The notes beneath the pieces were generated by a model, which worked only from the letters and a program-made list of their open reading frames with translations, had not been told where the DNA came from and did no database searches. Positions 11,679-60,162 of a stretch of 64,000 nt of DNA are shown here, in pieces (the stretch's first letter is position 1; each line of letters begins with the position of its first letter). A program made the translations under genes and the position numbers. This DNA comes from Bacteroidales bacterium (lineage in GTDB: Bacteria > Bacteroidota > Bacteroidia > Bacteroidales > FEN-979), in assembly GCA_963682005.1 (NCBI GenBank), contig OY820914.1, positions 3,908,145 to 3,972,144 of the forward strand, read 5' to 3'.

Positions 11679-11712
11679 GCTGGATGCTGGATGCTGGATG
11701 CTGGATGCTGGA
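11679..11712. repeat. tandem heptamer array GCTGGAT x ~4.9
   Basis: Direct reading: gctggatgctggatgctggatgctggatgctgga. The reverse complement CCAGCATCCAGC occurs at 11786-11797. Confidence 0.9.
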
Positions 11713-11830
11713 GTATAATATTTTGGCAAGTTAACGATATTTGTTTTTGGACACACACAAATCCCAATACCCGAAACACACACAACCAGCATCCAGCTTC
11801 GCCAATTAAGATTATTAGTATTTTTGCCGG

Positions 11831-13171
11831 GTGAAGATCCTCCTGATAAACCCGCCGCGTTCGCCGGAAAACAATATCCTGAAATTCGCCCCGGAGGCGG
11901 CAAAACAATTTATCCATAAGAAACTGATCGGTCCCCCGCTGGGATTGCTCACCATTGCTGCTGCTGTAAAAGATCATGATGTAACAGTCTTTGATTCGAA
12001 AGGGGAGTATGATCTTCATCCGGATGGACCTTCCCTGGAATTACTGGTGAAAGGACTTCTGGAAAAGCACAAACCAGATATCGTCGGAGTGACGATCATC
12101 ACCTCTGAGTTTGATCTTTCGCTTGAGATTTTTCGTGTTGTAAAAGAATATGACCCGGGGATTCTCACGGTAGCCGGGGGATTGCATGCCACACTCTGCC
12201 CGAAGGATTTTGCGGAGACACCCGTGGATGTGACAATCCCCGGCCAGTGCGCCCACATTTTCAGAGAGGTTGTCATTACGGCTGAAAGCAAAAAGGATCT
12301 TGCAATGGTGCCGGGGATTCTTCTTAATACAGATAATGGCTTTACAAAAACAAATGGAACTGCAAGGCCGTTTGATCATTCCGATGCCGGCTTCCTGAAA
12401 ATTGACAGGCGTTTCCTGGATAAGTGGATCGGCACATACAAAGTCGGGAACAGCCCTTTTCCTTCCACGTATGTTTACACTTCCCTGGGTTGTCCTTATA
12501 AATGTACATTCTGCTCGATCTGGACACAGTTTAAAGGAAAATATTATCAGCGTGATGTGGAGAGTCTCATCGAAGAGCTGAAATCGATCGATGAATACCC
12601 GGTTGTGCGGTTTGCAGATGCCAATACAGTGGTTGACTTTGATTTCATGAACCTCCTGTTCGACCGGATCGTTGAGGAAGGGATCAAAAAGACTTTTATC
12701 ATGGATATCCGTGCCGATGTGGTGGTTCAGCAACCTGCGCTCATCGAGAAATTCGCAAAGGCCGGATTGAAAGTCGTGATCTGCGGGTTTGAATCGTTCC
12801 GGGACAGTGAACTGAAAAAATACAATAAGTCATCACCGGCAAGGTATAACCAGGAAGCCATCGGCATCTTTGAGAAGAATGGCATCTTGGTCCGGGGAAA
12901 TTATGTGATACCGAATGATTACACCGCGGATGACTTTAAGGCACTGGCTGACTATTCCGCTGCGAACCCCGTGGTATATGCAGGATATACAATTTTAACA
13001 CCCATGCCGGGAACGGTCTATTATAACCAGGTCAGGCACCAGATCGTGGATCACGATTACCGGAAATACAATTTTTTTAATTCCGTGATGAAGACCGTAA
13101 TCCCGCATGATGAGTTTCATGAAATGGTCGGGGGACTTTGGCTGATCAAGAAAGGGAAAGACGTTATATAA
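11831..13171 (+). CDS. B12-binding domain-containing radical SAM protein (rSAM-2)
   Basis: 446 aa with a GTG start (MKILLINPP). It has a B12-binding-like N-terminus (PDIVGVTII) and CxxxCxxC in SLGCPYKCTFCSIW. Confidence 0.8.
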   Translation: MKILLINPPRSPENNILKFAPEAAKQFIHKKLIGPPLGLLTIAAAVKDHDVTVFDSKGEYDLHPDGPSLELLVKGLLEKHKPDIVGVTIITSEFDLSLEIFRVVKEYDPGILTVAGGLHATLCPKDFAETPVDVTIPGQCAHIFREVVITAESKKDLAMVPGILLNTDNGFTKTNGTARPFDHSDAGFLKIDRRFLDKWIGTYKVGNSPFPSTYVYTSLGCPYKCTFCSIWTQFKGKYYQRDVESLIEELKSIDEYPVVRFADANTVVDFDFMNLLFDRIVEEGIKKTFIMDIRADVVVQQPALIEKFAKAGLKVVICGFESFRDSELKKYNKSSPARYNQEAIGIFEKNGILVRGNYVIPNDYTADDFKALADYSAANPVVYAGYTILTPMPGTVYYNQVRHQIVDHDYRKYNFFNSVMKTVIPHDEFHEMVGGLWLIKKGKDVI

Positions 13172-13172
13172 T

Positions 13173-13205
13173 GAATATTGAACATTGAATATTGAACATT
13201 GAATA
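13173..13205. repeat. tandem array GAATATT/GAACATT (14-nt unit x ~2.3)
   Basis: Direct reading immediately after the TAA stop at 13169-13171. A related ggaatattgaatcttga precedes the next start codon. Confidence 0.85.
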
Positions 13206-13382
13206 GAGAAAATAAAGTCCAATCTGAAAAGCTCTGTTTACCACAAAGGCGCAAACCTGCCTGCTGGCGGGCAGGAACGCTAAAAATGAACTCATTGTAT
13301 CAAATTATTTGCGTCTTGGCGTCTTAGCGGTAAAGTTTTAAAAATCACTTTTCGGAGTAAACGCAACATGGAATATTGAATC

Positions 13383-14820: not shown

Positions 14821-14870
14821 GCTGTGCCTGAACTCTGTGTCCTCTGTGCCTTCCCTGTGACCTCTGTGGT
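14821..14870. repeat. CTCTGTG-family repeat block containing a dispersed 18-mer
   Basis: Reads gctgtgcctgaactctgtgtcctctgtgccttccctgtgacctctgtgg, between convergent gene ends. The 18-mer at 14842-14859 is the reverse complement of 17359-17376. Confidence 0.8.
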
Positions 14871-16605: not shown

Positions 16606-16656
16606 TCCTGATATTTATTTTGGGGTTATCTGATCTGCAAAAATACACTATTTTAT

Positions 16657-16700
16657 TTTTCACTCTTAACTTTTCACTCTTCACTTTTCACTCTTCACTT
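16657..16700. repeat. tandem 14-nt unit TTTTCACTCTTCAC x ~3
   Basis: Direct reading: ttttcactcttaacttttcactcttcacttttcactcttcactt. Confidence 0.85.
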
Positions 16701-16856
16701 GTAATTGGCTTTCAAATCTAAAATCCAAAATGGCAATATCTAAAAATATTCAGGATTTTGGATTTTACCATTTTACCATTTAAAACGGGTCAGCCAAAAA
16801 ATCAACCGCAAAGGCGCCCGAAGGTCGTCACTAAGGCGCTCAAAGGCGCATCTTCT

Positions 16857-16896
16857 CATTTTACATTTTGCATTTTGCATTTTGCATTTTGCATTT
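16857..16896. repeat. tandem heptamer array GCATTTT x ~5.5
   Basis: Direct reading: cattttacattttgcattttgcattttgcattttgcattt. Confidence 0.9.
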
Positions 16897-17407
16897 GATA
16901 TGCCTGTATCCTTCCTGTATGCTTCCTGTATGCAAATTCTGAACAAATCATTCTGAAGGTGCTCAATAGATGATTCTGAAAACCCTAATACTGACTTCAT
17001 TGGCAAACAATTTTCAATCAAATATTTGGGAAAACTAAATGTTAAGCATATGCCTTCGGGCTTACACCTGGAGTTTTTCATTATACATTGGAGGTCAATG
17101 GTAAGTTAAGCGGTGTTAAAAAGATGATTGTGATGGAATGATTTGAATTTACCCTGTTGGATTTTCCCACCCTTTCATCGGGGAATTCATCAGGAAGAAA
17201 ATATAATTACACGCGGAAGAAAATTAATTTCATGCGGGTGTAATTTTCAAAGTAAGTATTGAATAGAATTCCTGCATTTTGCATTATGCACTCCTGCATT
17301 GAAAAGGCCGCCAGCCAGGCTCCGTGACTCTGTGGTAAAAAAAACTCAACACGGAGAACACAGGGAAGGCACAGAGTTCACAGAGGTATTGTACCCAATG
17401 TGTTCTT

Positions 17408-19049: not shown

Positions 19050-19180
19050 ACTTTTTCTGATGATTAGTCTTCCTAAAAAATTATAGATTGCAAAAATACA
19101 AAATCTGGTAGGAAAGAAAAAGTCTATTCCTACTTTGATGTGCTTGAAAAAGAAAGAACTTTATAATGATCTGCTTAGCA

Positions 19181-19243
19181 TACCCACCCCTCAAATCCCC
19201 TCCCTACCATTAGGGAGGGGAAGACCGAAGGTCGGGGTGGGTA
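19181..19243. repeat. compound REP-like palindromic element
   Basis: The outer stem TACCCACCCC/GGGGTGGGTA encloses the hairpins CCCCTCCC-N8-GGGAGGGG and GACC-gaa-GGTC. The motif GAAGGTCGGGGT is shared with the RAYT right flank at 48028-48039. Confidence 0.7.
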
Positions 19244-19266
19244 CGATGGGGCCAAGGCATGCCTTT

Positions 19267-20319: not shown

Positions 20320-20389
20320 AAATCCAAAATCCAAAATCTAAAGTCTAAAATCTAAAGTCAAAAGTCAAAAGTCAAAAGTTAAAAGTCAA
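20320..20389. repeat. tandem heptamer array AAAATCC/AAAGTCA family x ~10
   Basis: Direct reading: aaatccaaaatccaaaatctaaagtctaaaatctaaagtcaaaagtcaaaagtcaaaagttaaaagtcaa. Confidence 0.9.
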
Positions 20390-20400
20390 CTAAACTTATT

Positions 20401-20430
20401 ATCCCGCATCCCGCATCGCGCATCCCGCAT
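20401..20430. repeat. tandem heptamer array CCCGCAT x ~4
   Basis: Reads atcccgcatcccgcatcgcgcatcccgcat and abuts the stop codon of rSAM-4 (20431). The same unit occurs at 51665-51699. Confidence 0.9.
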
Positions 20431-21975
20431 CTAGGTTCCAGCATCCCTCAACGGTCCCTCATCATGTTCTTTTACGATCTCGCGGTATTTCTCCATATTC
20501 TTTTTATGGTCGAGAATATGACGGTGATAGCCGAGCATGGAGAGCATGAAACCAAGTCCTTTGTCGATGGCGATCTTCTTTTCACGGATCAGTCCGAAGA
20601 TGAACCGGAACAATTTTCTTCGTTCGGGATCGGATGATATTACAAACTCTTTGAACGTGATCCACGATAATCTCGCTTTAAGAAATAGAGAAATATCTCC
20701 TCCTTTGCGTGTGAAAGCCCCGCTGCTGAAAAGTTGTTCGGCTTTAGGCCTTATGTTTTTGAAATCATAGAAACGTGCGATCGTTTCCATGTATTTTTCA
20801 AAGATATCAACCTGTGAAAGATTCTTGTAATGAACCGTCGGGAAATGGCCGACACCCAATTCGGGGTCACAATGCAGCAACCTGCCTTCGTCCTTCAGTC
20901 TTTTATGAAGTTCTGTCCCCGGCGGGGCGGCAAGCAGATGCAGGTTGACATTCGACAGGTCCATTTTCATTGTGAAGTCGAAGATATCGTCAAAAGCCTG
21001 GAGTTTATCATGATCAAAACCAACAACGAATGAGGCATTGATATGGATCCCGGCTGCGTGGATCTTCCGGATGGCGGGTTCGTAGATCGTCGCTTCCTTG
21101 TTATGAAGCTTATTGCTTTCACCAAGGCTTTCGGGGTTCAGCGATTCAAAACCGATGAGGATGTTGAAGCAGCCGGCATCGGCCATGAGTTCCAGCAATT
21201 CCTCATCATTGGCCACATCCAGGCTGCTCATGCAACCCCAGGAAATATTGAGGGGCTTGATGGCCTTCATAAGTTCCTTCGCGTATTTCTTGTTGATGGT
21301 CAGGTTATCATCGACAAAGAAAAAATAGGAGGATGGTGCTGCTTTTATCTCTTCCACCACATTTTCAATGGTGCGGTAGCGCATTTTTCTTCCGAAGATC
21401 TTTGAAACAAGGCAGAAATCGCAGTTGAACGGGCATCCCCTCGAAACCTGGATACCAACCTGGAAGATTTTTTTCATGCTGACAAGGTCCCAGCGGGGCG
21501 GTTTCTGGCTTTTGTACGGTACAGCAATATCAGACCTGTAAACGGGCTTCATATTTCCCTGTTCAAAATCCGAAAGGCATTCTTCCCACAATCCTTCCGC
21601 TTCTCCAACCACCACTGCATCGGCGTGCTTAAGTGATTCTTCCGTTGTGAACGAAGCGTATGGTCCGCCCAGGACGACTTTGACACCTTTTGACCGGTAA
21701 TGATCCGAAAGCTCGTAGGCCCGCGTTATCGTCGCAGCGAGGGTTGTGATCCCGATGATATCCGGTATTTCATTGGCAGGAAGATCCTCAATTTCTTCGT
21801 CAAAGATCTTGATATCGTAATGATCAGGCGTAAGGGAAGCGATGGTTGGGAGCGCCAAAGGGATCATCAGCCGCTTCTTCCCGAACATCTTCGCCAGCTC
21901 ATTGTGGGCCGGGTAGTTGATGTACTTCTGTTTCGGACTGATCAGGAACAGGCTGTATCTCTTTCTGTTAATCAC
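20431..21975 (-). CDS. B12-binding domain-containing radical SAM protein (rSAM-4)
   Basis: 514 aa. It has a B12-binding-like N-terminus (PDIIGITTL...VVLGGPY) and CxxxCxxC in SRGCPFNCDFCLVS. Confidence 0.8.
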   Translation of the reverse strand: MINRKRYSLFLISPKQKYINYPAHNELAKMFGKKRLMIPLALPTIASLTPDHYDIKIFDEEIEDLPANEIPDIIGITTLAATITRAYELSDHYRSKGVKVVLGGPYASFTTEESLKHADAVVVGEAEGLWEECLSDFEQGNMKPVYRSDIAVPYKSQKPPRWDLVSMKKIFQVGIQVSRGCPFNCDFCLVSKIFGRKMRYRTIENVVEEIKAAPSSYFFFVDDNLTINKKYAKELMKAIKPLNISWGCMSSLDVANDEELLELMADAGCFNILIGFESLNPESLGESNKLHNKEATIYEPAIRKIHAAGIHINASFVVGFDHDKLQAFDDIFDFTMKMDLSNVNLHLLAAPPGTELHKRLKDEGRLLHCDPELGVGHFPTVHYKNLSQVDIFEKYMETIARFYDFKNIRPKAEQLFSSGAFTRKGGDISLFLKARLSWITFKEFVISSDPERRKLFRFIFGLIREKKIAIDKGLGFMLSMLGYHRHILDHKKNMEKYREIVKEHDEGPLRDAGT

Positions 21976-21982: not shown

Positions 21983-22010
21983 AATTACGAATTACGGATT
22001 ACGAATTACG
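21983..22010. repeat. tandem heptamer array AATTACG x 4
   Basis: Reads aattacgaattacggattacgaattacg, 8 nt upstream of the rSAM-4 start. A TTYTCAT x5 array follows at 22021-22055. Confidence 0.9.
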
Positions 22011-22044
22011 AAAGTTTAATTTTTCATTTTTCATTCTTCATTCC

Positions 22045-23196
22045 TCATTCTTCATTGTAAATTATCGAATAGCCTGCCTGCATGAACTTGCTGACTTCAG
22101 TCACAAAACTCAGTATAAGGTCACCATTGTTGAGTTTTTCTTCCTTCCTGATCTTATCTAAGCACAGGAAAGCCATTGGCGGACCGATGTAGCCCATCGT
22201 CGACATTTTTGTATAGAGCGTATTCCTTGAGATGCCAAGTGTTTCGCACTCATCCATCACAAGTTCAGTGATATGCTTTGAGGGAAAGTTAACCTGGAAG
22301 AAGCGGAGCGATGAAAGATCGATCTGGTATTTCGCGATCATCCGCTGTAATCCTTTCAGAAATACAGATCCGTCCGGTTCGTGAAAATTAGCACGAAGTT
22401 CCTCCTGGAACATCTGGGCAAGGTGATGATAGCCTTTCTCAAATTCCTCTTTCGGGTTCATCCAGTAGGAGGGCCGCCTGTTTCCCATGGCTGAGGGCTT
22501 TTTCCCCCCGATGGATTCGGTATAGACATGGTCAATAAAAAGACCGGTCCTGTCATTGTCTTCTGCTTTCAATACCAGCGCAGCGGCCCCGTCGCTTAAA
22601 AAATAGCGAAGGAAAAGTTCTTCTTTCTTTATTAAAGGCTGGTTGTAATATTCCGCCACAAGTTCAGACGAAGACATATTGGAGGAAATGACAAGTGCAT
22701 TTTTATACCGGCCGTTCCTGACCAGGTCATGGGCGAGAAGAAGCGCTTTGTAAGCTGAGGTGCAATTGGCATGAATGGAAAACTCCCCACATTGTTCAAT
22801 CCCAAGTTTCTCCTGGATCCGTACGGAAGCTGTAGGCATCTGGTCCTGGTGGGCGCTGCCGTAAACGATAAGCTCGACTTCATCCGGCTTCATTTGTGCA
22901 TCATCCAGCGCTTTCAGTGCTGCCTTTACCGACATACTCACATTGTCTTCGGTGAACTGCCTTGTAACAGGATCGATTGCAAAATGATAATATTCCACAT
23001 CCAGCATTTCTTTCATCAAAGGCCGTATGCGCTGTTCCCAGTTCCTGATCTTCAATGGCGCATCCTTCACCTCGCCTAAGTAATCATAGAGGTTTTCCAA
23101 CGGAATGGCCGACCCGGGAAGGTAGGTTCCGGTACCCGCCAGCCTGATGAATATCCTGTTATCAATTGTGTTTTTCGTGTTCACCTTATCCCGCAA
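22045..23196 (-). CDS. thiolase-fold KAS III (FabH)-like condensing enzyme
   Basis: 383 aa. It has a FabH-like N-terminus (LAGTGTYLPGSAIPLENL) and a candidate nucleophile in HANCTSAYKALLLA. Assignment within the thiolase superfamily (FabH, DarB or type III PKS-like) cannot be made by eye. Confidence 0.6.
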   Translation of the reverse strand: MRDKVNTKNTIDNRIFIRLAGTGTYLPGSAIPLENLYDYLGEVKDAPLKIRNWEQRIRPLMKEMLDVEYYHFAIDPVTRQFTEDNVSMSVKAALKALDDAQMKPDEVELIVYGSAHQDQMPTASVRIQEKLGIEQCGEFSIHANCTSAYKALLLAHDLVRNGRYKNALVISSNMSSSELVAEYYNQPLIKKEELFLRYFLSDGAAALVLKAEDNDRTGLFIDHVYTESIGGKKPSAMGNRRPSYWMNPKEEFEKGYHHLAQMFQEELRANFHEPDGSVFLKGLQRMIAKYQIDLSSLRFFQVNFPSKHITELVMDECETLGISRNTLYTKMSTMGYIGPPMAFLCLDKIRKEEKLNNGDLILSFVTEVSKFMQAGYSIIYNEE

Positions 23197-23871: not shown

Positions 23872-23899
23872 AATTATGAATTATGAGTTTGAATTATGA
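23872..23899. repeat. AATTATG-family tandem repeat
   Basis: Reads aattatgaattatgagtttgaattatga. A near-identical string occurs at 51607-51641 and a shorter copy near 43403. Confidence 0.85.
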
Positions 23900-44664: not shown

Positions 44665-44707
44665 CTTCCCGTGTGCGCAGTTGGTTAGTAATTCATTGGT
44701 TTATGAT

Positions 44708-44736: not shown

Positions 44737-44767
44737 ATTCGTAATTCGTAATTCGTAATTCGTAATT
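44737..44767. repeat. tandem heptamer array ATTCGTA x ~4.4
   Basis: Reads attcgtaattcgtaattcgtaattcgtaatt and runs into the FabG stop codon at 44766-44768. Confidence 0.9.
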
Positions 44768-47188: not shown

Positions 47189-47250
47189 GCAGGCTGCAGG
47201 CTACAAGCTACAGGCTTTCGCCGTGCCGTCATTCCCGCGAAAGCGGGAAC
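47189..47250. repeat. composite element: CAGGCTR-type array x4 followed by the 23-nt hairpin GTCATTCCCGCGAAAGCGGGAAC
   Basis: Reads gcaggctgcaggctacaagctacaggct ... gtcattcccgcgaaagcgggaac. The order is opposite to the 36320-36380 copy. Confidence 0.9.
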
Positions 47251-47332: not shown

Positions 47333-47467
47333 ATGAGTTACAAATCACTTGAAATCTGGAAAATTGCGGATGACCTGGTTATTAAGATCCATGAGATGAC
47401 GATTCAAAATCTGCCAAAATTTGAAATGAATGAAACAGGAAGCCTGATAAGAAGATCTATCAAATAA
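47333..47467 (+). pseudogene. N-terminal fragment of a four-helix-bundle (23S rRNA-IVS-type) protein gene
   Basis: MSYKSLEIWKIADDLVIKIHEMTIQNLPKFEMNETGSLIRRSIK* matches the usual start of this family (M.YK.LEVWK.A..L...IY..T..FPK.E...L..QLRR...S). It stops 14 nt before the RAYT left inverted repeat. Confidence 0.5.
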
Positions 47468-47480
47468 GAAAGACAATATG

Positions 47481-48042
47481 AATTACCCCGGCCTTCAGGC
47501 CGGGGGTTGACGAAGGTAAAAGCACCGGGCTTTAGCCCAAAAAAGAAGATCATGGGATATATAAAAATCTGGGTACATCTGGTCTGGACAACTAAAAACA
47601 GAGAACCCATTTTAACGTCTGAAATCAGAAAACAGATTTTCAATCATATAAGGGAAAATGCTGTTAATAAAGGTATTTATATTGATTTTCTAAATGGTTA
47701 TCTTGAGCATGTTCATTGCCTTGTCTCCCTTGGTTCTGGCCAGAATATCGATAAAATCCTGATGCTGTTAAAAGGCAAATCTTCATTCTGGATAAATAAA
47801 GCCAGAATCTTTCCGCAAAAGTTTGAATGACAGGATGAATACTTTGCAGTATCCGTAAGTCAATCTGCAGTTAGCAATGTCAGAGAATACATAAGAAAAC
47901 AAGAAGAACATCATCGGAAGTATTCCTTTGAGAAAGAGTATGAAGAGTTTATCAAAAAGTACGGCTTTGACAAACTGATTTCGGGCTAAAGCCCTTATTA
48001 AGCACGTCTATCTGAACCCCCGGCCTGAAGGTCGGGGTAATT
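47481..48042 (+). mobile_element. REP-flanked RAYT unit (IS200/IS605-like Y1 transposase between inverted REP hairpins)
   Basis: The left end AATTACCCCGGCCTTCAGGCCGGGGGTTGA (47481-47510) is the near-perfect reverse complement of the right end TGAACCCCCGGCCTGAAGGTCGGGGTAATT (48013-48042). There is an inner inverted pair GGGCTTTAGCCC (47527-47538) / GGGCTAAAGCCC (47983-47994). Confidence 0.65.
47552..47989 (+). pseudogene. REP-associated tyrosine transposase (IS200-like Y1 transposase) with in-frame TGA
   Basis: MGYIKIWVHLVWTTKNREPIL...LEHVHCLVSL (HUH motif) ...FPQKFE*QDEYFAVSVS...VREYIRKQEEHH (catalytic Tyr helix). The TGA at 47828-47830 sits where the family has a conserved Trp (FEW.DEY). 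The frame continues for 52 codons to the TAA at 47987-47989. Confidence 0.7.
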
Positions 48043-48312: not shown

Positions 48313-48386
48313 GGCTCCGTGGCGTAACTGAATAGCGCATCTGACTACGGATCAGAAGGTTACAGGTTTGAATCCTGTCGGAGTCA
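48313..48386 (+). tRNA. tRNA-Arg(ACG): tRNA-Arg (anticodon ACG)
   Basis: Hand-folded cloverleaf. Acceptor stem GGCTCCG/CGGAGTC (one G-T pair), D stem GCGT/GCGC, anticodon stem TCTGA/TCAGA with loop CTACGGA, 5-nt variable loop, T stem ACAGG/CCTGT with loop TTTGAAT, discriminator A. No CCA is encoded. Confidence 0.85.
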
Positions 48387-48398
48387 CAAGACAAATGT

Positions 48399-48442
48399 AA
48401 AGTGCAAGGTGCAAAGTGTAACTAATTTGCACTTTGCACTTT
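48399..48442 (+). terminator. hairpin downstream of tRNA-Arg (possible intrinsic terminator)
   Basis: AAAGTGCAAGGTGCA pairs with TGCACTTTGCACTTT (one mismatch) across a 14-nt loop, followed by the T-rich ttcgtttta. Confidence 0.4.
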
Positions 48443-48941
48443 TCGTTTTACACGTTAGACTTCGAACTTTTCAATTTGCACCTTCCAAGGAATCTTTTGA
48501 CTGTCGTTTCAATGACTGATCACGAGTTTCCTGGTTTCTATGCCAGTCGTCGTTTCCATGCTCACATATAGATACCGCTGTGCAAAGAATACATTCATAA
48601 TCCATGGCAGCATCACCAGCAAGACTACATGATTTTTCATATTAATGTGAGTTTATCTTGTTTTCGATATACCATATATGTCTTTCAAATAACATAAGTG
48701 CGATCCATGCAAATACGTTACAGTGAGAAAAAATGAGAACTCCGTATTGTTGAGGAAGCGGAAGAATTGTCAGCTTTTAATCGCCCTATCTGGTCCCGTT
48801 GTAGACCCATGGTGAACCCATTCATCACCCGTCCAGGTTTTTCGTTTCATTCACAGGAATGATATGACAGGTTGGCAGTAGAAATTGTCAATGCTGCCTG
48901 TTGTTAAATTACATATTTATACGTTAATACTGATTTATTTG

Positions 48942-48984: not shown

Positions 48985-50241
48985 ATGAAAAGCAGAATTT
49001 TTTTCTTTTTGGTACTGGCGATGAGCATGTTTACTATTCCAGTCTTTTCTCAGACAGAAAGTAAAACAGCGAAAGATACCACATTATTGGGTCTGCCCGG
49101 AGACAATCTGGACCTTTATGCAGTATTGGAACTTTTTCAAAAGTCAAAGACCATTGAAGACTTTGAGAAATCGTTAAATGAAGAAAAGACAGGGATCAAT
49201 AACCTGGATCTTAATTTGGATGGGAAAGTTGATTTCATCAAGGTTGTAACAAAGAAAAATGGGGACGATTTTACATTTATTCTTCAGGTAGATGTGAGTA
49301 AGACGGAAAAGCAGGATGTCGCTGTTATCTTAGTTACAAAAGATAAGAATAAGAAAGTTTCGATACAGATTGTCGGCGACAAGGCATTGTACGGTAAGGA
49401 TTATATTGTCGAGCCAAAGCCGACTGCAACTCCGGCTGTTACTGCAAATCCAGGGTACACCGGTTCAGAACCGGTGACGGTGAATGTTCCGTCTTCAACC
49501 ACAGTTGTAGTTGTGGAATCGGCACCTATTGTGCAGTATGTTTATTCACCTGCGTATGTGCCCTACGTTCCGCCCTATTATTATGGATTCTATCCGCCTT
49601 ATTTTGCAGCATTTACTGTAATGGCTGTAAGTGTTTACCGTCACAATAATTATTATTACCATGGCGGCGGATATGGGTATGGTTATCATGGGAATACCAC
49701 AGTAATTCATAATACCAACAATTACAATAATTACAATAATTCGAGGAGCTCTTCCAATACTGTGAATCATAATAATGCGAATGGAAATTACAATCGGAAT
49801 AATGGATCAGCAGGTAATCGGCCTTCGACACAACCGGCGAACCGTCAGTCAGGAGGCGCTTCCCCCTCGACCCAGCCTGCAAACCGTCAGTCAGGAGGTG
49901 CTTCACCCTCAACCCAGCCTGCAAACCGTCAATCAGGAGGTGCTTCACCCTCAACCCAGCCTGCGAAACGTCAGTCAGGAGGTGCTTCACCCTCAACACA
50001 ACCCACAAACCGTCAATCAGGAGGCGTTTCACCTTCGACCCAGCAATCAAATCGTCAATCAAGTCCGTCATCAAATTCATATAACGGCCGTAATTCTAAT
50101 AGCGGAAGTCAAATGGGAGGCGGCAGTTCCAGAGGAGGAAGCAGTTATAGCGGAGGTAGTTCAAGAGGCGGAGGTGGTTATAGCGGAGGCGGCGGTTCAA
50201 GAGGTGGTGGAGGTTCCAGAGGCGGCGGAGGCAGACGATAA
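48985..50241 (+). CDS. secreted low-complexity protein with EF-hand-like loop, Tyr/Pro-rich segment, 14-aa tandem repeats and Gly/Arg/Ser tail
   Basis: 418 aa. It has a signal peptide (MKSRIFFFLVLAMSMFTIPVFSQ) and a DLNLDGKVDF Ca-loop-like motif. It also has YVPYVPPYYYGFYPPYF, five or more copies of PSTQPANRQSGGAS, and a GGSSRGGGGYSGGGGSRGGGGSRGGGGRR tail. Confidence 0.7.
   Translation: MKSRIFFFLVLAMSMFTIPVFSQTESKTAKDTTLLGLPGDNLDLYAVLELFQKSKTIEDFEKSLNEEKTGINNLDLNLDGKVDFIKVVTKKNGDDFTFILQVDVSKTEKQDVAVILVTKDKNKKVSIQIVGDKALYGKDYIVEPKPTATPAVTANPGYTGSEPVTVNVPSSTTVVVVESAPIVQYVYSPAYVPYVPPYYYGFYPPYFAAFTVMAVSVYRHNNYYYHGGGYGYGYHGNTTVIHNTNNYNNYNNSRSSSNTVNHNNANGNYNRNNGSAGNRPSTQPANRQSGGASPSTQPANRQSGGASPSTQPANRQSGGASPSTQPAKRQSGGASPSTQPTNRQSGGVSPSTQQSNRQSSPSSNSYNGRNSNSGSQMGGGSSRGGSSYSGGSSRGGGGYSGGGGSRGGGGSRGGGGRR
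49822..50070 (+). repeat. 42-bp in-frame tandem repeat, ~5.9 copies
   Basis: Unit ccctcaacccagcctgcaaaccgtcagtcaggaggtgcttca. The central copies differ by 2-3 nt and the edge copies are more diverged. Confidence 0.9.
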
Positions 50242-51547: not shown

Positions 51548-51606
51548 AGTCTTCAGTTTTTTCGGCAAACATAAAAATAAAAACCAGAGAAATCAAATCT
51601 TTCAGG

Positions 51607-51641
51607 AATTATGAATTATGAGTTTGAGTTATGAATTATGA
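51607..51641. repeat. AATTATG-family tandem repeat
   Basis: Reads aattatgaattatgagtttgagttatgaattatga; compare 23872-23899. Confidence 0.85.
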
Positions 51642-51664: not shown

Positions 51665-51699
51665 CGCATCCCGCATCCCGTATCCCGCATCCCGCATCA
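51665..51699. repeat. tandem heptamer array CGCATCC (=CCCGCAT family) x 5
   Basis: Reads cgcatcccgcatcccgtatcccgcatcccgcatca and overlaps the TGA stop (51697-51699) of the M6 protease gene. Confidence 0.9.
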
Positions 51700-54318
51700 C
51701 TTATTAATGATCAGATCCCCATTTGTTACCACCGTTACGCCCGGAATCGTTGAAAATGTCGCCGACGGCTGGATCGTAACTGACTTTGCATTTACGGTCG
51801 ATGTTAATGTGCAGGTTCCGGAATTAATAATGATGTTGTCAAAGGAACCAGGAAGATATTGCGGCGTCCAGTTGGAAGTGGAAGTCCAATCCCCTGTTCC
51901 GTTCCAGGTCATTGTATTTTCAGTGATCGCAACATCGTCGAGGCATACGCCAAAGCTGAAGTTAGCCATTCCTTCAAAAGCAAGAAAATAGGTGGAAGAT
52001 GGATTCGGTATAAGAATCGATTCGGATTTCCACCCGATTACGTTCGATGTGTATGAAGCCAGGAGGGTCCAGTCATCATGGGGGGAAGACCGGTAATATA
52101 CCTTCATCTGGTCCTGGTAGGGAGCCCAGAATTCCTGCGAATGCCAGAACCGCAGGACAGGTGTATTCATACCCGACAAGTTCAGCGTCGGGCTGATCAT
52201 TCTCGTTACCGGATGTGTGTAATCGCCGATGAAAAGGATCGCATTGTACGAACCGGAATGGGCTGCAGACGGATGAGCTCCGCCGGTATATCCGCCATTC
52301 TGGAATTGCCAGTCAAGCGTTCCGGATTCATGCGATTGAGTCCAGCAATAGGGCATCGATCCTGTATGCTCAAAATCCTCGATCCATGGAAAAGTATTGA
52401 TAACGGTACAAAATGTGGTCGCTTGAGCAGTTACGCCGGGAGAATATGTAACCCCGGTCAGGATGGACCATATTTTATAGTAGCAAGTGGTATTCGGACT
52501 TAATGATGTATGGCTGTAAAGCGTATTTCCGCCATTATACATCACGGTTCCGCCTCCCGGAATGGAATTTCCGGCCGGATAGTTTGTCCCGTTGACCGGA
52601 GTCCCGAAAACACCGGTGGGACTGTATGCAAGGACCACAGGGTTATTGTATATGTTCTTCCCCCACGACACGTCGATCTGGCTTGTGTTTACGGCAGATG
52701 CCGTGAAATTTGAAGGATCAGTAGGAGGGGCGCAAGCGATGAAGCAAAAGGTGATTTCTTTTGTTGTATTATTCTCCGTTACGTTCGTAATCGGGTAATT
52801 TGTATTTGCTCCTGCCCATGAATGGGAATTCGGAGTGGTGGCATCGGTAAACGATGTAATAGAAGAAGTCCCGGGAAAAGGACAGGTGCTGCTGTTTATC
52901 GAACCGTATACAGAAGGCGGGTTTCCTGTCGCATTGGCACAAACAGGATACAAACCCTGGTGACTCCCGGCATTGATATCATTCGCATTCATGTGAGATG
53001 AAATGTAGTTCCCGTCAACATGATAGATCATCAGCCCGTGTCCCGGAATGGAAAGGTTAAAGCCCGTCTGCTGCCGGTTTTCACATAGGAAATATTCATT
53101 TGCTGTTGTCGTGTTGTACCGGAAAACATCTGTATAGGTCTGGATATTCCTTACAGTGGCAATCTGCTGGTAGGTCATCACGGTCGGATTGGTCCAGGTA
53201 AAGAATGTTTTGATCCAGGGATTCGGATGAGGAGGCTTGGAGCCGGATGGACTTCCGTTCCATGAGCCGCTGGCCATGACATCCCAGCTGCCGGTGCCAT
53301 TGTATTGCCCGTTGGTACTGTAATCCGTATCATAGAAATCAGGGGATCCCAGGTTATGCCCGAATTCATGACACATCACACCGATGTTTGTCATCGATGA
53401 AGTCCCTGATTTTTCAGGGATGGTCGTGTATTCTGTTACCTGGACTCCGTCGAAGGTACGTTGAGAAAGCGTGAAGCCTGCTGAAGCAAGATCCCAGCTG
53501 TGAGACCAGACATCAAGGGTGCTTCCTGATTCTTCCTGACCGCGGCCCTGGTGGGTGAGGCAAACTCCGTCTACAATCCCGTTCCCGTTGTTATCATAAA
53601 GGGCATAATTGACGCCTGCCTGCTGATCGGCGGCAACCACCGCATCATAAGCAAACTGTCCCCACATGGATTCAGGACCATAATAATCATGGGGATGCGA
53701 GAGCGTTACCCAAACGGTTACCGTCGTATTTACCGTGAGTAAGCCATACGATACCTCCAGGTAAAAATCCCTGAAACTCCCGCTGCTGTTATAATTCACC
53801 TGGTTCATCAGGTTATTGAAGTTCGTTTGTGTATACGTGGTTGACGTGTTTGAGAAATTTGCCATGATCATCAGGTGGGTGCGCACTCCGGTGGTTGGGA
53901 AGCCTCCCATCATCGTTGCATCGGAATTAGAATCCCTGTGAAGCAATTTTTTCATTTCCGTGATCTGCGGGTCACTGAATCTTAACCCTTTTGCGATTGT
54001 GGCAAGGAACTGAAGTTCTTCCTGGGTACGTAGTCCTTCAGCATGAACTCTTACGCCTGAGAAAATCAGTTGACCGTCATGTGAATGCTTTGCATACTCA
54101 TAAAACCCCTGCTTGTTGGAGAGGATGGTATATCCGTCAGGTGTTGCTGCCCAATGGACGAATTCGTCTCCCTGGTTGATGATGGTGATTACAGATCCGT
54201 CAGGTTGATGGTATTGTACAGGGTCAGGGTAGGCAATTACGGCTTCCGCTTTTTGCGTGAATACAATGTTTTGCAAGATCATCACGCAGGCAACTGCAAT
54301 CAGGAAAAGCTTTTTCAT
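51697..54318 (-). CDS. secreted M6-family (immune inhibitor A-like) zinc metalloprotease with FN3-like and lectin/MAM-like C-terminal module
   Basis: 873 aa with a signal peptide and the zinc motif VMCHEFGHNLGSPDFYD. The C-terminal ~335 aa are homologous to the C-terminus of the adjacent BNR protein. Confidence 0.75.
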   Translation of the reverse strand: MKKLFLIAVACVMILQNIVFTQKAEAVIAYPDPVQYHQPDGSVITIINQGDEFVHWAATPDGYTILSNKQGFYEYAKHSHDGQLIFSGVRVHAEGLRTQEELQFLATIAKGLRFSDPQITEMKKLLHRDSNSDATMMGGFPTTGVRTHLMIMANFSNTSTTYTQTNFNNLMNQVNYNSSGSFRDFYLEVSYGLLTVNTTVTVWVTLSHPHDYYGPESMWGQFAYDAVVAADQQAGVNYALYDNNGNGIVDGVCLTHQGRGQEESGSTLDVWSHSWDLASAGFTLSQRTFDGVQVTEYTTIPEKSGTSSMTNIGVMCHEFGHNLGSPDFYDTDYSTNGQYNGTGSWDVMASGSWNGSPSGSKPPHPNPWIKTFFTWTNPTVMTYQQIATVRNIQTYTDVFRYNTTTANEYFLCENRQQTGFNLSIPGHGLMIYHVDGNYISSHMNANDINAGSHQGLYPVCANATGNPPSVYGSINSSTCPFPGTSSITSFTDATTPNSHSWAGANTNYPITNVTENNTTKEITFCFIACAPPTDPSNFTASAVNTSQIDVSWGKNIYNNPVVLAYSPTGVFGTPVNGTNYPAGNSIPGGGTVMYNGGNTLYSHTSLSPNTTCYYKIWSILTGVTYSPGVTAQATTFCTVINTFPWIEDFEHTGSMPYCWTQSHESGTLDWQFQNGGYTGGAHPSAAHSGSYNAILFIGDYTHPVTRMISPTLNLSGMNTPVLRFWHSQEFWAPYQDQMKVYYRSSPHDDWTLLASYTSNVIGWKSESILIPNPSSTYFLAFEGMANFSFGVCLDDVAITENTMTWNGTGDWTSTSNWTPQYLPGSFDNIIINSGTCTLTSTVNAKSVTIQPSATFSTIPGVTVVTNGDLIINK

Positions 54319-54424
54319 AGGGTTATCAGTTAGATTTGGAGATCATTTCTGATCGTGTTTCAAATATGGTGTTCAGTAATTCGTTGCAAAATGTTGTTTG
54401 GATCTTCCTATAAAATCTTTTATG

Positions 54425-57751: not shown

Positions 57752-57906
57752 ATCGATTTGGTTTAGAATGAATCAGTAAGTCCATGATAAGGGTTGATCC
57801 ATGTATACATCAGAATATCAGGATGTAAATTTATAAAAAATTACGATAGAAAAGGCAAATGGTCCGGGAAAAATAACCCGTGCATTTAATTTTTACCTTT
57901 GCGGAC

Positions 57907-58188
57907 ATGGAGAATGATACGGGGAAAAAAGGAAAAAGTAAGTGGGTCAGGTATCTCGGTTTCGGTCTGATATTCCTGACATGGATCATCTGGGGTGTGA
58001 TCTTCCTGATCCCTTTCCTTCATCTTGGATTGAAAAAAGCGGCGATCGCAACAACGGTCCTCTTAATCGCCACAAATATTTTTTACCTTGGACTTTTTCT
58101 TGTCGGGAAAGAACTTGCAGAGAAGTTCAATATCCGGGGAAAGATAAAGGCCTGGATGATGAGGAGGAAATCAAAAGGCGGAGGATAG
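57907..58188 (+). CDS. small two-TM membrane protein (transporter-suffix-domain-like)
   Basis: About 93 aa from MENDTGKK with two hydrophobic helices (LGFGLIFLTWIIWGVIFLIPFL and AAIATTVLLIATNIFYLGLFLVG). The family name is from memory only. Confidence 0.4.
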   Translation: MENDTGKKGKSKWVRYLGFGLIFLTWIIWGVIFLIPFLHLGLKKAAIATTVLLIATNIFYLGLFLVGKELAEKFNIRGKIKAWMMRRKSKGGG

Positions 58189-58213
58189 TGAATAGTGAAT
58201 AGTGAATAGTGAA
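58186..58213. repeat. tandem heptamer array TAGTGAA x 4
   Basis: Reads tagtgaatagtgaatagtgaatagtgaa, starting at the TAG stop of the upstream gene. Confidence 0.9.
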
Positions 58214-58243
58214 CAGCGATTTAGGATTAAGGTCAATTAGAAA

Positions 58244-58681
58244 TTAGTCTTTTAATCCGCGTTTAATTGCGGGAAAAAATGAATTGATAATGTTTTTCGC
58301 CTCTTCAAGAGATTGATATTCCTTTACAAGGATACCGGGGCAGCCGGAGATCATGGCTGAAAGTTTCTTTCCTTCCTGATTTCGGTACAGACAAATGATC
58401 TTCTTTCCAAGGTCAAGTGCTTTGGCGATCTCAAAACCGACGCCGAGGCTTGGCGTTGAAACTTCGGCAACAACAAACTCAGAGGATGAGAGCCACTCAA
58501 GGTCACGTTCGAAGATTTCCCGGTCTGTCATGTTCTCCTCGCCGGAAGGGGTAAGCGCTGAACTACCTACATGTTCTGTGAGCACTTCACCGATTGTCTG
58601 AAGGTACCCGATGATCTGCCGGTAAATTTCCTTGTCATTCCGTCCGCCCCGGATCGAGCCTGCAAAATAGATCTTCTTCAT
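58244..58681 (-). CDS. nucleoside 2-deoxyribosyltransferase-fold protein, DNPH1 (2'-deoxynucleoside 5'-phosphate N-hydrolase)-like
   Basis: 145 aa. MKKIYFAGSIRGGRNDKEIYRQIIGYLQTIGEVLTEHVG closely parallels the DNPH1/Rcl N-terminus (IYFCGSIRGGR.D...Y..I...L...G.VLTEHV). Confidence 0.6.
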   Translation of the reverse strand: MKKIYFAGSIRGGRNDKEIYRQIIGYLQTIGEVLTEHVGSSALTPSGEENMTDREIFERDLEWLSSSEFVVAEVSTPSLGVGFEIAKALDLGKKIICLYRNQEGKKLSAMISGCPGILVKEYQSLEEAKNIINSFFPAIKRGLKD

Positions 58682-59430
58682 CTTTTCTTATTTTTTCCGT
58701 CAGAACGGGGGCCAGGCGCGGCATTTCTGCCAACCCGGCAAACTGCCACACAAATCCCGCAGATCCGCCTGTCGATCTTTAAATGGGTTCGCCCGAATTC
58801 AATGCATTGTTCCCTGCACCGGTAAGCGTTAAAAAAGACATCACGGTCAGTATGAATGTCCCATAACTGACCGGTTGCCGCGCCTGCCGGGCATTTTTCG
58901 ACACAAATAATACATTTGCCGCACCTGCTTTTTTCAATCGGTTCATCACCGAGCTTAATTTCGTGATTGATCAGGATGCTGGCAAGTCTTAATCTTGCCC
59001 CAAATTTTGTTGAAATAAAAAGATCCGTTTTGCCTATCCATCCAAGCCCGGCACGTGTTGCCACCATTTTATGGGAAACTTCGTACCTGAGATTGGGGAG
59101 AAGACGGTCAAAGGTTTCAGGATCCGTTGAGATGGTCGGTTTGACTGCCATCGCAAGGATCCCGCAATCTTTTAGTTCCGCTACGACATCTTCACAAACT
59201 GCCTGCAGCTTAAGGTTTATCTCCGTGAAATGGTCGAGGTATTCAAGGGTCGGAGCTTCCGTGATTTTGTCGATGATCTCATCATCCAGTTTGCATCCGA
59301 TCGAAATTCCATAGGGATATTCGCTGAATTTTTCATCCAAAAGCCCCCTGAGATCGGCAAAACCGAATATATACCTTTCTTCAGGGATTAAATGGCTTCT
59401 GAGAATTTTGCTCAAACCGGAATTTGTCAT
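58678..59430 (-). CDS. QueG/reductive-dehalogenase-superfamily 4Fe-4S protein (short, epoxyqueuosine-reductase-like)
   Basis: 250 aa with HKMVATRAGLGWIGKTDLFIS (QueG-like core) and two ferredoxin-type Cys clusters (CGKCIICVEKCP and CGICVAVC). It has an ATGA overlap with the downstream gene. Confidence 0.55.
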   Translation of the reverse strand: MTNSGLSKILRSHLIPEERYIFGFADLRGLLDEKFSEYPYGISIGCKLDDEIIDKITEAPTLEYLDHFTEINLKLQAVCEDVVAELKDCGILAMAVKPTISTDPETFDRLLPNLRYEVSHKMVATRAGLGWIGKTDLFISTKFGARLRLASILINHEIKLGDEPIEKSRCGKCIICVEKCPAGAATGQLWDIHTDRDVFFNAYRCREQCIEFGRTHLKIDRRICGICVAVCRVGRNAAPGPRSDGKNKKR

Positions 59431-59487
59431 GGGTCTTGATTCTACGTGAACATTAGGGTATTATGTTTCCATCACTCCATCACTTTA

Positions 59488-60162
59488 TCACTTTACCACC
59501 TTCTTTTTAAGCGAAGTGATCTTAAAGCTCAACCCGATATGTGTGCTCAGGTTGTTCCAGATATACTTTGTATTCCAATATGGATTGGAGATTCCCGGAT
59601 ACATGCCTGAAGTATGATAGCCTGCCTGAGAGATGACATAGTCCAGCGTATAATACAATCCAAATCGCCCTTCCGTATCAAAGAACAGGTTATAACCGAG
59701 TCCGATCACATTGTTGATATACATATCATTTTCTGTAAATGAGTTAAATAAAGTAGCCACCTGGGGATATCGGTCTCCTTTAAAACGCAGGTACTCGAAG
59801 GCATAATGAATGACCAGGTTTTCCCTCCCATAAACATCAAATACGTAAAACTTATAACCGGCGATAGCCCCGACACAGGAATTGAGCTTCTCTTCAGGAT
59901 ACGTACCATTATAGAACAAAGCATCGGTCTTTAACGGGTAAACAATTCCGGCAGAAAACTCATGCTTGCCTGTCCTGATGTATGGCGCAACATAAATTGC
60001 GCTCATGTATTTCTTGAGGTAATCCTTATTGGCAGGGAAGTTGGTAAAACCACCCGCCGTGATCCCAAACTCCTTCATCTCCTGGTCAGACTGGGAAAAA
60101 AGGTTTTTAGTGAGCCCGGTAATAACCAGGACTGAACAAAATACTGCAATGATTGTTTTCAT
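59488..60162 (-). CDS. hypothetical secreted / outer-membrane protein
   Basis: 224 aa with a signal peptide (MKTIIAVFCSVLVITGL) and a Tyr/Gly-rich alternating pattern suggestive of a beta-barrel. Confidence 0.45.
   Translation of the reverse strand: MKTIIAVFCSVLVITGLTKNLFSQSDQEMKEFGITAGGFTNFPANKDYLKKYMSAIYVAPYIRTGKHEFSAGIVYPLKTDALFYNGTYPEEKLNSCVGAIAGYKFYVFDVYGRENLVIHYAFEYLRFKGDRYPQVATLFNSFTENDMYINNVIGLGYNLFFDTEGRFGLYYTLDYVISQAGYHTSGMYPGISNPYWNTKYIWNNLSTHIGLSFKITSLKKKVVK

Follow-up and report, generated by a model that had tools for sequence, protein, structure and literature searches.

What are the heptanucleotide arrays that lie between the genes of a 64,000-nucleotide stretch of Bacteroidales DNA, and by what process did they come to be there? 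The stretch, referred to below as the window, comprises positions 3,908,145 to 3,972,144 of the forward strand of contig OY820914.1 (GenBank assembly GCA_963682005.1; GTDB lineage Bacteria; Bacteroidota; Bacteroidia; Bacteroidales; FEN-979), and a preliminary description, made from its letters alone, had drawn attention to short tandem arrays, mostly of period 7, in its intergenic spacers. Our data identify these arrays as a fresh example of a formally described class of repeats, in a lineage for which that class had no earlier documentation. On balance, they are probably generated and resized by slippage, tolerated only in noncoding spacers, filtered in orientation by their position, and individually dispensable.

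Every array in the preliminary description was recovered, with offsets of 0 to 3 nucleotides (nt), when the 64-kb window was analyzed with Tandem Repeats Finder (TRF) and with our own period scan. The scan identified 16 arrays of period 7 with at least three copies and 0 to 2 for periods 5, 6, and 8 to 15; 50 third-order Markov simulations of the window, matched in composition, yielded a mean of 0.04 period-7 arrays and a maximum of 1, and the arrays are thus nonrandom, as had been claimed. The TRF census counted 18 arrays at period 7, none at period 8, and 1 each at periods 9, 11, and 15. The statement that nearly every gap longer than about 60 bp holds an array was too broad, since an array of period 7 or 8 is present in about 12 to 13 of the 24 gaps of at least 60 nt, and the gaps that lack one include 1501-1604, 19050-19266, 28701-28810, 30032-30102, 38646-38787, 54319-54424, and 57752-57879. 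The reported contact between arrays and stop codons was confirmed at 13171, 20431, 36457, 44766, 51697, and 58188 and is also seen at 22045: the array starts -12 to +3 nt from the end of the open reading frame (ORF) at 20431, 22045, 36457, 44766, and 51697, and, judging from the coordinates, the stop codons at 13171 and 58188 are likewise abutted.

Could the arrays be products of chance or of assembly? The short-read Logan contigs L081 and L082 (sample ERR12015701) are 100% identical to the window; L082 fully covers the arrays at 20320-20431, and both contigs end within other arrays, as multicopy repeats do. Since the window is identical in these contigs across the arrays, the arrays are not an assembly artifact, a source that the preliminary description had considered for low-coverage regions, and comparable arrays occur in dozens of independent assemblies. 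With 0.04 arrays expected against 16 observed, chance or assembly artifact is refuted as their source, with next to no probability left to it. Exact-protein look-ups for a second strain of the window's own species returned only L081 and L082, which are identical and from one sample, with one look-up giving no match, and the metagenome scan contained no relative above 84% amino-acid identity. Among Rfam families, only a tRNA was found in the window, and none matched the arrays. The array units are contiguous and nonpalindromic, unlike those of REP/BIME elements, which are palindromic, or CRISPRs, which have unique spacers; separate palindromes occur elsewhere in the window. The arrays and related elements of the window are listed here, with the unit as given in the preliminary description in parentheses where it differs.

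1999-2031, no strand: period-8 array TGATGAAC, 4.1 copies, within a 53-nt intercistronic gap
11679-11712, no strand: GCTGGAT, 4.9 copies, perfect; divergent region between a GT2 gene and a B12-binding radical-SAM (rSAM) gene, inside a spurious 5' extension of ORF 10391-12019
11786-11799, no strand: CCAGCATCCAGC, inverted partial copy of the GCTGGAT array and partner of the array at 11679
13172-13205, plus strand: TGAATAT/TGAACAT 14-nt super-unit, 2.4 copies (4.6 copies as a 7-mer; GAAYATT); begins at the stop of the rSAM gene 11831-13171, sense strand purine-rich
16657-16700, minus strand: AGTGAAG/AGTGAAA (sense), 5.9 copies, 83% purine; in the long noncoding stretch 16606-17407
16857-16896, no strand: GCATTTT, 5.7 copies, in ORF 16773-17081, which has no Pfam match and is probably not a gene
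20320-20389, minus strand: TTGACTT, 5 copies, then AGATTTT/GGATTTT, 5 copies (sense; AAAGTCA/AAAATCC), 35% purine; reaches the start of the 3-hydroxyacyl-CoA dehydrogenase gene
20401-20431, minus strand: GATGCGG (sense; CCCGCAT), 4.4 copies, 68% purine; overlaps the stop of the rSAM gene 20431-21975
21983-22012, minus strand: TTCGTAA (sense; AATTACG), 4.3 copies, pyrimidine-rich; 7 nt upstream of the rSAM start
22019-22056, minus strand: GAATGAA/GAAAAAT (sense; TTYTCAT), 5.4 copies, 84% purine; ORF 22045-23196 ends 12 nt inside it
23872-23899, minus strand: TCATAAT (sense; AATTATG), 4.1 copies; 8 nt upstream of a start codon
36341-36380, minus strand: CCTGTAG/CCTGCAG (sense; CAGGCTR), 5.7 copies; adjoins the palindrome TTCCCGCTTTCGCGGGAA at 36324-36341
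36422-36453, minus strand: AATTACG (sense), 4.6 copies; 3 nt after the stop of gene 36457-37209
43264-43295, minus strand: TTCGTAA/TCCGTAA (sense; AATTACG), 4.6 copies; 50 nt upstream of the start of an acyl carrier protein (ACP) gene
43402-43416, minus strand: TCATAAT (AATTATG), short copy, 2.1 copies
44705-44728, minus strand: ATCCAGC (sense; GCTGGAT), 3.4 copies; second array of the ketoreductase (KR)-to-ketosynthase (KS) spacer
44737-44767, minus strand: AATTACG (sense), 4.4 copies, perfect; overlaps the TAA stop of the KR gene 44766-45494
47190-47216, no strand: CAGGCTR, 3.9 copies, in a divergent region; beside the second palindrome copy at 47232-47249
48399-48445, plus strand: AAAGTGC, 3 copies, and inverted TTTGCAC, 3 copies; just 3' of tRNA-Arg
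51606-51641, minus strand: TCATAAT (sense; AATTATG), 5.3 copies, 42% purine; second array of its spacer
51665-51698, minus strand: GATGCGG (sense; CCCGCAT), 4.9 copies, 71% purine; overlaps the stop of the M6 peptidase gene 51697-54318
58185-58213, plus strand: TGAATAG (TAGTGAA), 4.1 copies, perfect; overlaps the stop of ORF 57880-58188, top strand 72% purine, in a convergent gap
59468-59499, no strand: period-8 array ATCACTYY, 3.6 copies; spans the 57-nt gap 59431-59487 and the stop end of ORF 59488-60162

To what extent are such arrays a property of this genome, of its operons, or of its lineage? TRF was used to call arrays on all fetched loci of relatives. In 1.74 Mb of related Bacteroidales loci, it called 132 arrays of period 7, 46 of period 8, and 14 of period 9, with no more than 6 at any other period from 2 to 21, whereas 0.56 Mb from other phyla carrying the same rSAM homolog gave 5 at period 7, 2 at period 8, and few at other periods. 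About half of the sampled related loci have 7- or 8-mer arrays in the same operon spacers. Among 48 loci of at least 18 kb, 18 have no array and 8 have at least 5 per 20 kb, an over-dispersed distribution (mean 2.2, variance 7.2), and the window itself carries 5.6 per 20 kb. Because the load is so patchy among loci, the propensity to carry arrays is a trait of particular genomes of the clade, not of the operon.

The avoidance of coding DNA proposed in the preliminary description also holds: 70% of the period-7 and period-8 arrays overlap ORFs by 25% or less, although non-ORF DNA makes up only 13.7%, and most of the remaining "intragenic" arrays are found either near the beginning, within a few hundred bases, of ORFs called too long or where two genes have been falsely fused across a stop-free array. 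Arrays occupy 17% of co-directional gaps (63 of 376), 9% of divergent gaps, and 3% of convergent gaps (1 of 39). Exact-run copy numbers drop monotonically from 2 to 8 copies, and periods 5 and 6 never exceed 3 copies. Stop-free arrays (GCATCCN, TCCAGCA, CTGCCAA) let naive ORF callers lengthen genes upstream or fuse neighbors, as in ORF 10391-12019 of the window and in the related loci L002 (7461-10037) and L147 (305-2812), and automatic annotations of array-bearing genomes may contain false N-terminal extensions and gene fusions.

How stable are the arrays? The preliminary description had suggested looking for copy-number polymorphism, and this is indeed seen between close strains of relatives. 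The loci L117 and L118, which are 98.9% identical, differ by 42 nt, or 6 units, in a CGCTTTT array; L127 and L145, with flanks 94% identical, carry unrelated arrays (TTTCGCT versus ATTCAAT) in the same spacer; and the pairs L096/L102 and L100/L109 show unit drift together with copy-number change. The earlier proposal of a genome-wide system rather than slippage therefore stands only in its first half. The arrays are a trait of the genome or lineage, for they occur both within the biosynthetic cluster and beyond it, in roughly half of the relatives, and nearly nowhere in other phyla with the same rSAM homolog, but the opposition to slippage is not supported, as 99%-identical strains differ in copies and 94%-identical strains have arrays fully replaced.

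The spacer between the KR stop and the KS start provided us with a view of one junction across about 70 genomes, in which its length ranges from 1 to 5 nt (L084, L094, L126, L133) up to 272 nt (L117). Since the spacer is only 1 to 5 nt long in some relatives, individual arrays are dispensable for the operon. Long KR-to-KS spacers are usually made up of two arrays, one of GAATNNN type on the stop side and one of TTTCRCY type, with a period of 7 or 8, on the start side. The window and L110 have a common architecture, (A[AT/AC]TACG)x4 followed by (ATCCAGY)x3, within which the orthologous arrays have drifted, from AATTACG in the window to AACTACG in L110 and from ATCCAGC to ATCCAGT. As a spacer feature the arrays are long-lived, yet they are unstable in unit and copy number, a pattern that slippage with concerted evolution would give. 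No degeneracy gradient along the arrays, with older units at the ORF side, was detected (0.845 versus 0.844).

Does the position of an array relative to its neighboring genes matter? With all arrays pooled, there is no sense-strand skew, and an asymmetry appears only when they are split by position. Arrays within 5 nt of an upstream stop are purine-rich and C-poor on the sense strand (A 0.375, C 0.095, G 0.264, T 0.266; purine 0.62), and those within 20 nt of a downstream start are pyrimidine-rich and G-poor (A 0.279, C 0.214, G 0.119, T 0.388; purine 0.38), the two groups differing in purine content (Mann-Whitney p = 8e-9). Of 37 co-directional spacers with two or more arrays, 34 have a first array that exceeds the last in purine content (binomial p = 1e-7), and the purine-first order is found in 42 of 46 multi-array gaps overall, including all five such gaps of the window. 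Unit families occur in either orientation, depending on the side, and in the window they read AATTACG, GAATGAA, TGAATAT, TGAATAG, and GATGCGG after stops and CGTAATT and TCATAAT before starts.

The polarity is dyad symmetric, in that a purine-rich array followed by a pyrimidine-rich one reads alike on both strands, and it therefore cannot separate selection at the mRNA level from a DNA-level process working inward from both ORF boundaries. General spacer composition was rejected as its source on the evidence of array-free spacers. Stop codons within the units were likewise rejected as the cause of purine richness after stops: a sense stop triplet is present in 17 of 37 stop-adjacent units, in line with the chance expectation of about 47%, an antisense one is present in 16 of 37, and the non-stop positions are still 68% purine. 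Pairing between the purine- and pyrimidine-rich arrays of one spacer, which would draw its stop and start codons close to each other, was rejected as well (-7.1 kcal/mol for real and -8.7 kcal/mol for mismatched pairs; p = 0.38). With regard to RNA structure, array-rich spacers are less structured than array-free spacers at equal G+C (median z +0.38 versus -0.66, p = 0.004), four spacers of the window having z values of +1.1, -1.6, +0.7, and +2.3.

Phage and prophage contigs from unrelated hosts (L168, L184, L191, L192, L197, and L240; G+C 0.41 to 0.64) also carry many heptamer arrays. In all of these except L240, which has (GCTGGAT)n and other G+C-rich units instead, the unit (AATTACG)n is present, often as inverted pairs 10 to 18 nt apart that would form hairpins of about 30 bp. 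L192 (IMGVR_UViG_3300020045_012626) holds 12 AATTACG arrays in 9.9 kb, mostly as inverted pairs, and encodes a Mu-type terminase, with named relatives from Desulfobulbus, Desulfobacteraceae, and Geobacter; it is a Mu-like element related to Desulfobulbaceae/Geobacter prophages. Inverted pairs in the IMG/VR array contigs run from purine-rich to pyrimidine-rich in 13 of 16 cases. Across the units as a whole, single-linkage clustering at one mismatch was uninformative, merging almost all of them into one cluster, and the commonest are AATTACG, AAATCGT, AATATTG, AGTTGGC, and ATGCTGG. Part of the unit sharing between genomes reflects orthologous spacers, and part does not. Within the window, an odd variant unit of 6 nt and some 20 nt of upstream flank are common to the TCATAAT arrays at 23872 and 51606, which means that some arrays, at least, have been copied from others.

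Several further elements of the window lie beside arrays or are built from similar units. The 18-nt palindrome TTCCCGCTTTCGCGGGAA occurs in two copies, 36324-36341 and 47232-47249, each directly beside a CAGGCTR array, so that the two together act as a single composite repeat. An element of period 9, CTCTGTGCCTTCCCTGTG (units CTCYGTGNN), is intergenic at 14842-14859 (plus strand), 17359-17376 (minus strand), and 43343-43360 (minus strand); inverted CACAGAG/CACGGAG units come after it at 17300-17390, where a hairpin is possible. The GCTGGAT array at 11679 and its inverted copy at 11786 could form a long hairpin (minimum free energy, MFE, -43.7 kcal/mol; z -4.9). Directly 3' of the tRNA-Arg(ACG), in 48313-48450, a terminator-like hairpin is made from the repeat vocabulary, the inverted AAAGTGC and TTTGCAC arrays and a T-run giving an MFE of -27.5 kcal/mol (z -6.2). 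The stretch 16606-17407, about 800 nt between ACP and ketosynthase genes, contains no convincing gene and is dense in arrays of periods 7, 8, 10, 11, 14, and 21. The array-free spacer 19050-19266 contains an imperfect palindrome rich in G/C, CCCACCCCGACCTTCGGTCTTCCCCTCCCTAATGGTAGGGAGGGGATTTGAGGGGTGGG, which may be another multicopy element, since the end of short-read contig L082 falls within it. Finally, an IS200-like Y1 transposase fragment (PF01797) lies at 47507-47830; a frameshift is probable, the C-terminal part extending to about 48000, and inverted hairpins, CCCCGGCCTTCAGGCCGGGG, flank the fragment at 47486-47505 and 48018-48037. It is seemingly inserted in a truncated small ORF (~47345-47480) that looks like one for a four-helix-bundle protein of the 23S intervening sequence (23S-IVS) type, and the stretch 47345-48040 may represent either an IS200/IS605 element or a transposase unit of the REP-associated kind.

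Are such arrays new among bacteria? The STRR (short tandemly repeated repetitive) sequences of heterocystous cyanobacteria, reportedly described by Mazel and coworkers in 1990 and also mentioned in PMC4692102, are said to consist of tandem heptanucleotides that are scattered over intergenic sites and use only a few different units. The arrays described here are likewise dispersed intergenic tandem heptanucleotides but belong to a Bacteroidales host, not a heterocystous cyanobacterium, and the STRR1 to STRR3 units (CCCCAGT, TTGGTCA, CAACAGT) are not tandem in the window. The contingency repeats of phase variation switch surface or restriction genes on and off from positions within the ORFs or core promoters of these genes. 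Our arrays resemble these in being slippage-prone tandem repeats whose copy number differs among strains, but they lie between cistrons of biosynthetic operons or overlap stops, with no switch evident; one array, that at 11679, falls in a divergent promoter region.

The preliminary description knew of no formal description of such a repeat class. It has, however, been described under several names, as STRR, as long simple sequence repeats (LSSRs, as summarized in PMC4679880), as TAACTGA arrays (PMC4679880), as GGGAATC/GGGGAYT repeats (PMC4692102), and as the Geobacter elements (PMC2700814). According to the summary in PMC4679880, LSSRs of 5 to 11 nt are sporadically distributed, with heptanucleotides the most abundant, and polymerase slippage has been proposed for them (Mrázek, Guo and Shah 2007). 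To the extent that PMC4679880 and PMC4692102 cover the heptanucleotide LSSRs, the window arrays match them in the dominant 7-nt period, over-representation, confinement to noncoding DNA, sporadic lineage-specific occurrence, and proposed slippage origin, and the instability of copy number between close strains that goes with this class is found in the relatives (L117 versus L118, 6 units). Unlike the LSSRs as summarized there, many unit families coexist here, and relatives commonly have period 8 as a second period; the uncultured Bacteroidales/Prolixibacteraceae-like lineage is not among the LSSR lineages that the two summaries name.

A parallel in placement comes from the GGGAATC repeats of Xanthomonas and GGGGAYT repeats of Nostoc, which prefer about four units, frequently form inverted pairs, and lie near stops on the coding strand, often overlapping the stop, and near starts on the noncoding strand (Rehm et al. 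2015, PMC4692102). Our arrays share with these their intergenic location, stop overlap, unit number of about four, inverted pairs, and variation in length and sequence between related species, and in both systems the 5' end of the purine-rich strand adjoins the ORF that lies nearest (PMC4692102). In contrast to GGGAATC and GGGGAYT, the units here are mostly A+T-rich and form no G-quadruplex, a G3 run being present only in the two ATGCGGG arrays. Since the units are mostly unable to form G-quadruplexes, the shared polarity is not a G-quadruplex effect. In Geobacter metallireducens, several classes of 3 to 5 tandem hepta-, octa-, or nonanucleotide units, often paired on opposite strands, were interpreted as possible sites for global regulators or possible regulatory RNAs (Aklujkar et al. 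2009, PMC2700814). The coexistence of classes, the 3 to 5 tandem units of 7 to 9 nt, the dozens of copies, and the frequent pairing on opposite strands are features in common with our arrays, and the Geobacter class TCTCCGTS[Y] resembles the CTCYGTGNN period-9 elements of the window (PMC2700814). None of the Geobacter units GGGACCG, GTTGCTYN, TCTCCGTS[Y], and MTYCTGA is tandem in the window, where only the looser pattern CTCYGTGNN x2 occurs, at 14833 and at 17368. TAACTGA arrays are known from Beggiatoaceae, Cyanobacteria, and five Bacteroidetes, often just upstream of starts, with shorter spacers in array-less relatives, and S1, Csp, and CsrA were put forward as their binders (MacGregor 2015, PMC4679880). 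They resemble our arrays as intergenic heptamer arrays of 2 to 6 copies whose unit is common to several phyla without an evident transfer mechanism (PMC4679880), but the TAACTGA system is dominated by a single unit, whereas dozens of units are found here; TAACTGA itself occurs in the window as 11 single copies, none in tandem. A Nostoc preprint lists TTTTGAA arrays upstream of starts (bioRxiv 10.1101/2022.06.06.494920), and this unit belongs to the same family as GTTTTGA/TTTGAAT in our analysis. GGGAATC, GGGGAYT, and TTTTGAA are not tandem in the window.

What, then, makes the arrays? We infer that slippage generates them, that selection causes their polarity, and that no dedicated reader recognizes their sequence. 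Arrays would be made and resized in place as units of 7 nt, or at times 8 nt, undergo slipped-strand mispairing or unequal exchange, and the arrays would homogenize and drift as wholes, through concerted evolution, with fast turnover. They would survive only where an expansion that is not a multiple of 3 is harmless, namely, in noncoding spacers, which they would fill right up to the stop and start codons, and position would filter the surviving orientation, such that the strand leaving the neighboring ORF 5' to 3' is purine-rich. At most, the arrays may modulate the expression of internal cistrons via poorly structured spacer RNA or, when two arrays are inverted, via a hairpin. Of the three candidate roles in the preliminary description, binding sites, modulators of spacer length, and products of a replication or repair quirk, the last fits best; the variety of units, of which there are dozens, the two periods (7 and 8), and the dispensability of the arrays fit poorly with sites for a single sequence-specific binding protein.

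A number of observations weigh against this account. The array statistics come from loci that are not phylogenetically independent, mostly from one operon. The purine asymmetry is absent from array-free spacers, and stop triplets inside units do not account for it; array length is narrowly centered, the median array having 4.7 copies and 34 nt; arrays are depleted in convergent relative to co-directional gaps (Fisher p = 0.018); and the array architecture at one junction has been kept across ~20% amino-acid divergence. The reuse of units at distant loci and in both orientations, which the preliminary description had noted, is confirmed: identical-unit pairs number 10 within the window, against 0.31 expected when letters are shuffled within units, and 225 between genomes, against 20.6 expected. 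The four AATTACG arrays of the window lie at four different junctions without common flanks, and all have 4.3 to 4.6 copies and the same ends. Furthermore, (AATTACG)3 is found in 64 and (GCTGGAT)3 in 17 IMG/VR stretches (G+C 0.36 to 0.67), the contigs themselves being heptamer-rich, and reuse of units across phyla is not predicted by simple local slippage. The 7-nt onset, narrow length range, cross-phylum units, polarity, and convergent-gap depletion are not accounted for by simple slippage, and these features keep alternatives at the level of RNA, copy-paste, and regulator sites alive.

Bacteroidota initiate translation without Shine-Dalgarno pairing. The pyrimidine-rich, G-poor start-side arrays might accordingly be single-stranded platforms for OB-fold proteins (bS1, cold-shock proteins), with roughly one 6- to 7-nt unit per domain, that drive Shine-Dalgarno-independent initiation, and the purine-rich, C-poor stop-side arrays might keep Rho off the untranslated spacer. 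The position-dependent strand asymmetry specific to arrays is consistent with such RNA elements, as are the approach of arrays to within 0 to 5 nt of verified KS start codons, the structure-poor nature of array-rich spacers, the enrichment of arrays in co-directional over convergent gaps, and, by our reckoning, the typical 4 to 5 units, which would fit a multidomain OB-fold footprint; in Nostoc, deletion of heptamer repeats altered expression 1.5- to 2.9-fold (preprint, bioRxiv 10.1101/2022.06.06.494920). Nevertheless, the same junction works in relatives with a 1- to 5-nt spacer, there is wide variation in units and periods, with replacement between strains that are 94% identical, the dyad-symmetric polarity does not by itself prove an RNA-level cause, and clusters of arrays show no less structure than shuffled versions of themselves (mean z +0.12), which leaves a role as functional RNA elements rather unlikely. 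A bolder and still less likely proposal is that the arrays are written or read by a conserved polar mechanism common to several phyla, with which the independence of polarity from G-quadruplex potential, the narrow lengths, and the cross-phylum reuse of units are compatible. In one version, 3' ends at breaks or gaps in spacers would be extended in a templated or reiterative manner, laying purine-rich 7-nt repeats from both sides, and this, if true, would account for the dyad-symmetric order of purine- and pyrimidine-rich arrays, for the way in which arrays abut ORFs, and for units that cross phyla, AATTACG among them. In the other, an OB-fold code, bS1 or cold-shock proteins, at ~7 nt per domain and with 4 to 5 domains or units, would set internal-cistron translation and polarity without Shine-Dalgarno pairing.

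Alternatively, the arrays could be dispersed mobile or copy-paste elements, spread either through ectopic gene conversion or by a dedicated enzyme that works on single-stranded DNA, such as an IS200-like or REP-associated Y1 transposase, with slippage resizing them only afterward. Identical units and copy numbers at nonorthologous loci point in this direction, together with the variant unit of 6 nt and ~20 nt of flank common to the arrays at 23872 and 51606, the same 18-nt palindrome adjoining both CAGGCTR arrays, the Y1 transposase fragment with its flanking inverted hairpins, and the same units in phage or prophage contigs of other phyla. Most same-unit arrays, however, have no common flanks, no target-site signature was seen, and orthologous arrays evolve in place; moreover, Y1 transposases (IS200/IS605, REP-associated) are not known to act on direct repeats that lack hairpins. 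We regard such spread as very unlikely to be the origin of the arrays. The lowest standing among the functional proposals goes to the idea that the arrays are DNA sites bound by one global regulator or a small number of them, or else phase-variable spacers by which promoter geometry is reset, and we consider this highly improbable. In its favor are the presence of TTTG, the core of Bacteroidota promoter motifs, in many units close to starts, the location of the array at 11679 in a divergent promoter region, and the copy-number polymorphism among relatives, but most arrays lie between cistrons of one operon or overlap stops, the units number in the dozens, a 7-nt period gives no helical phasing, and arrays are lost without loss of the operon. 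That elements of 3 to 5 units may be global regulator sites has precedent in the annotation of Geobacter metallireducens, where similar elements are treated as putative sites of this kind (PMC2700814). Slippage with positional filtering thus remains the reading that we prefer.

The genomic setting of the arrays is that of a Bacteroidales-type genome, as seen from a type IX secretion system (T9SS) sorting domain and a flexirubin/aryl-polyene-like cluster. The window has a G+C content of 45% and contains a long minus-strand biosynthetic cluster with several ketosynthases, a DarB-like ketosynthase, an aromatic amino-acid ammonia-lyase, and ACPs, as well as four B12-binding radical-SAM enzymes, one of which matches TIGR04072. 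Near the cluster lie an MMPL/acyltransferase/methyltransferase fusion gene and the gene for the protein with the T9SS sorting domain. The closest genomes are metagenome-assembled genomes of uncultured Bacteroidales/Prolixibacteraceae, at 73 to 75% amino-acid identity for the rSAM gene, and the closest metagenome contigs reach at most 84% amino-acid identity for the KS. The ORF at 48985-50241 (418 amino acids, without a Pfam or NCBIfam match) contains in-frame repeats of 42/84 nt and Gly/Ser-rich repeats of 18 nt at 49828-50231; these are coding and unrelated to the heptamer arrays.

What does the locus add? A new biological system is not established by these data, and a dedicated function of the arrays is not shown. 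Heptanucleotide arrays have been on record since 1990 in scattered bacterial lineages. The exact recurrence of units such as AATTACG in phage and prophage contigs of unrelated hosts is now added to that record. The polarity relative to ORFs that was reported for G-rich repeats also holds for A+T-rich units, which rules out G-quadruplexes as its general cause. In practical terms, the arrays break short-read assemblies and mislead ORF callers into spurious N-terminal extensions and gene fusions, and they would serve well as strain-typing markers. The lineage studied here provides a dense, multi-unit example in Bacteroidota, which initiate translation without Shine-Dalgarno pairing, and such a lineage would be a good place to test the arrays.

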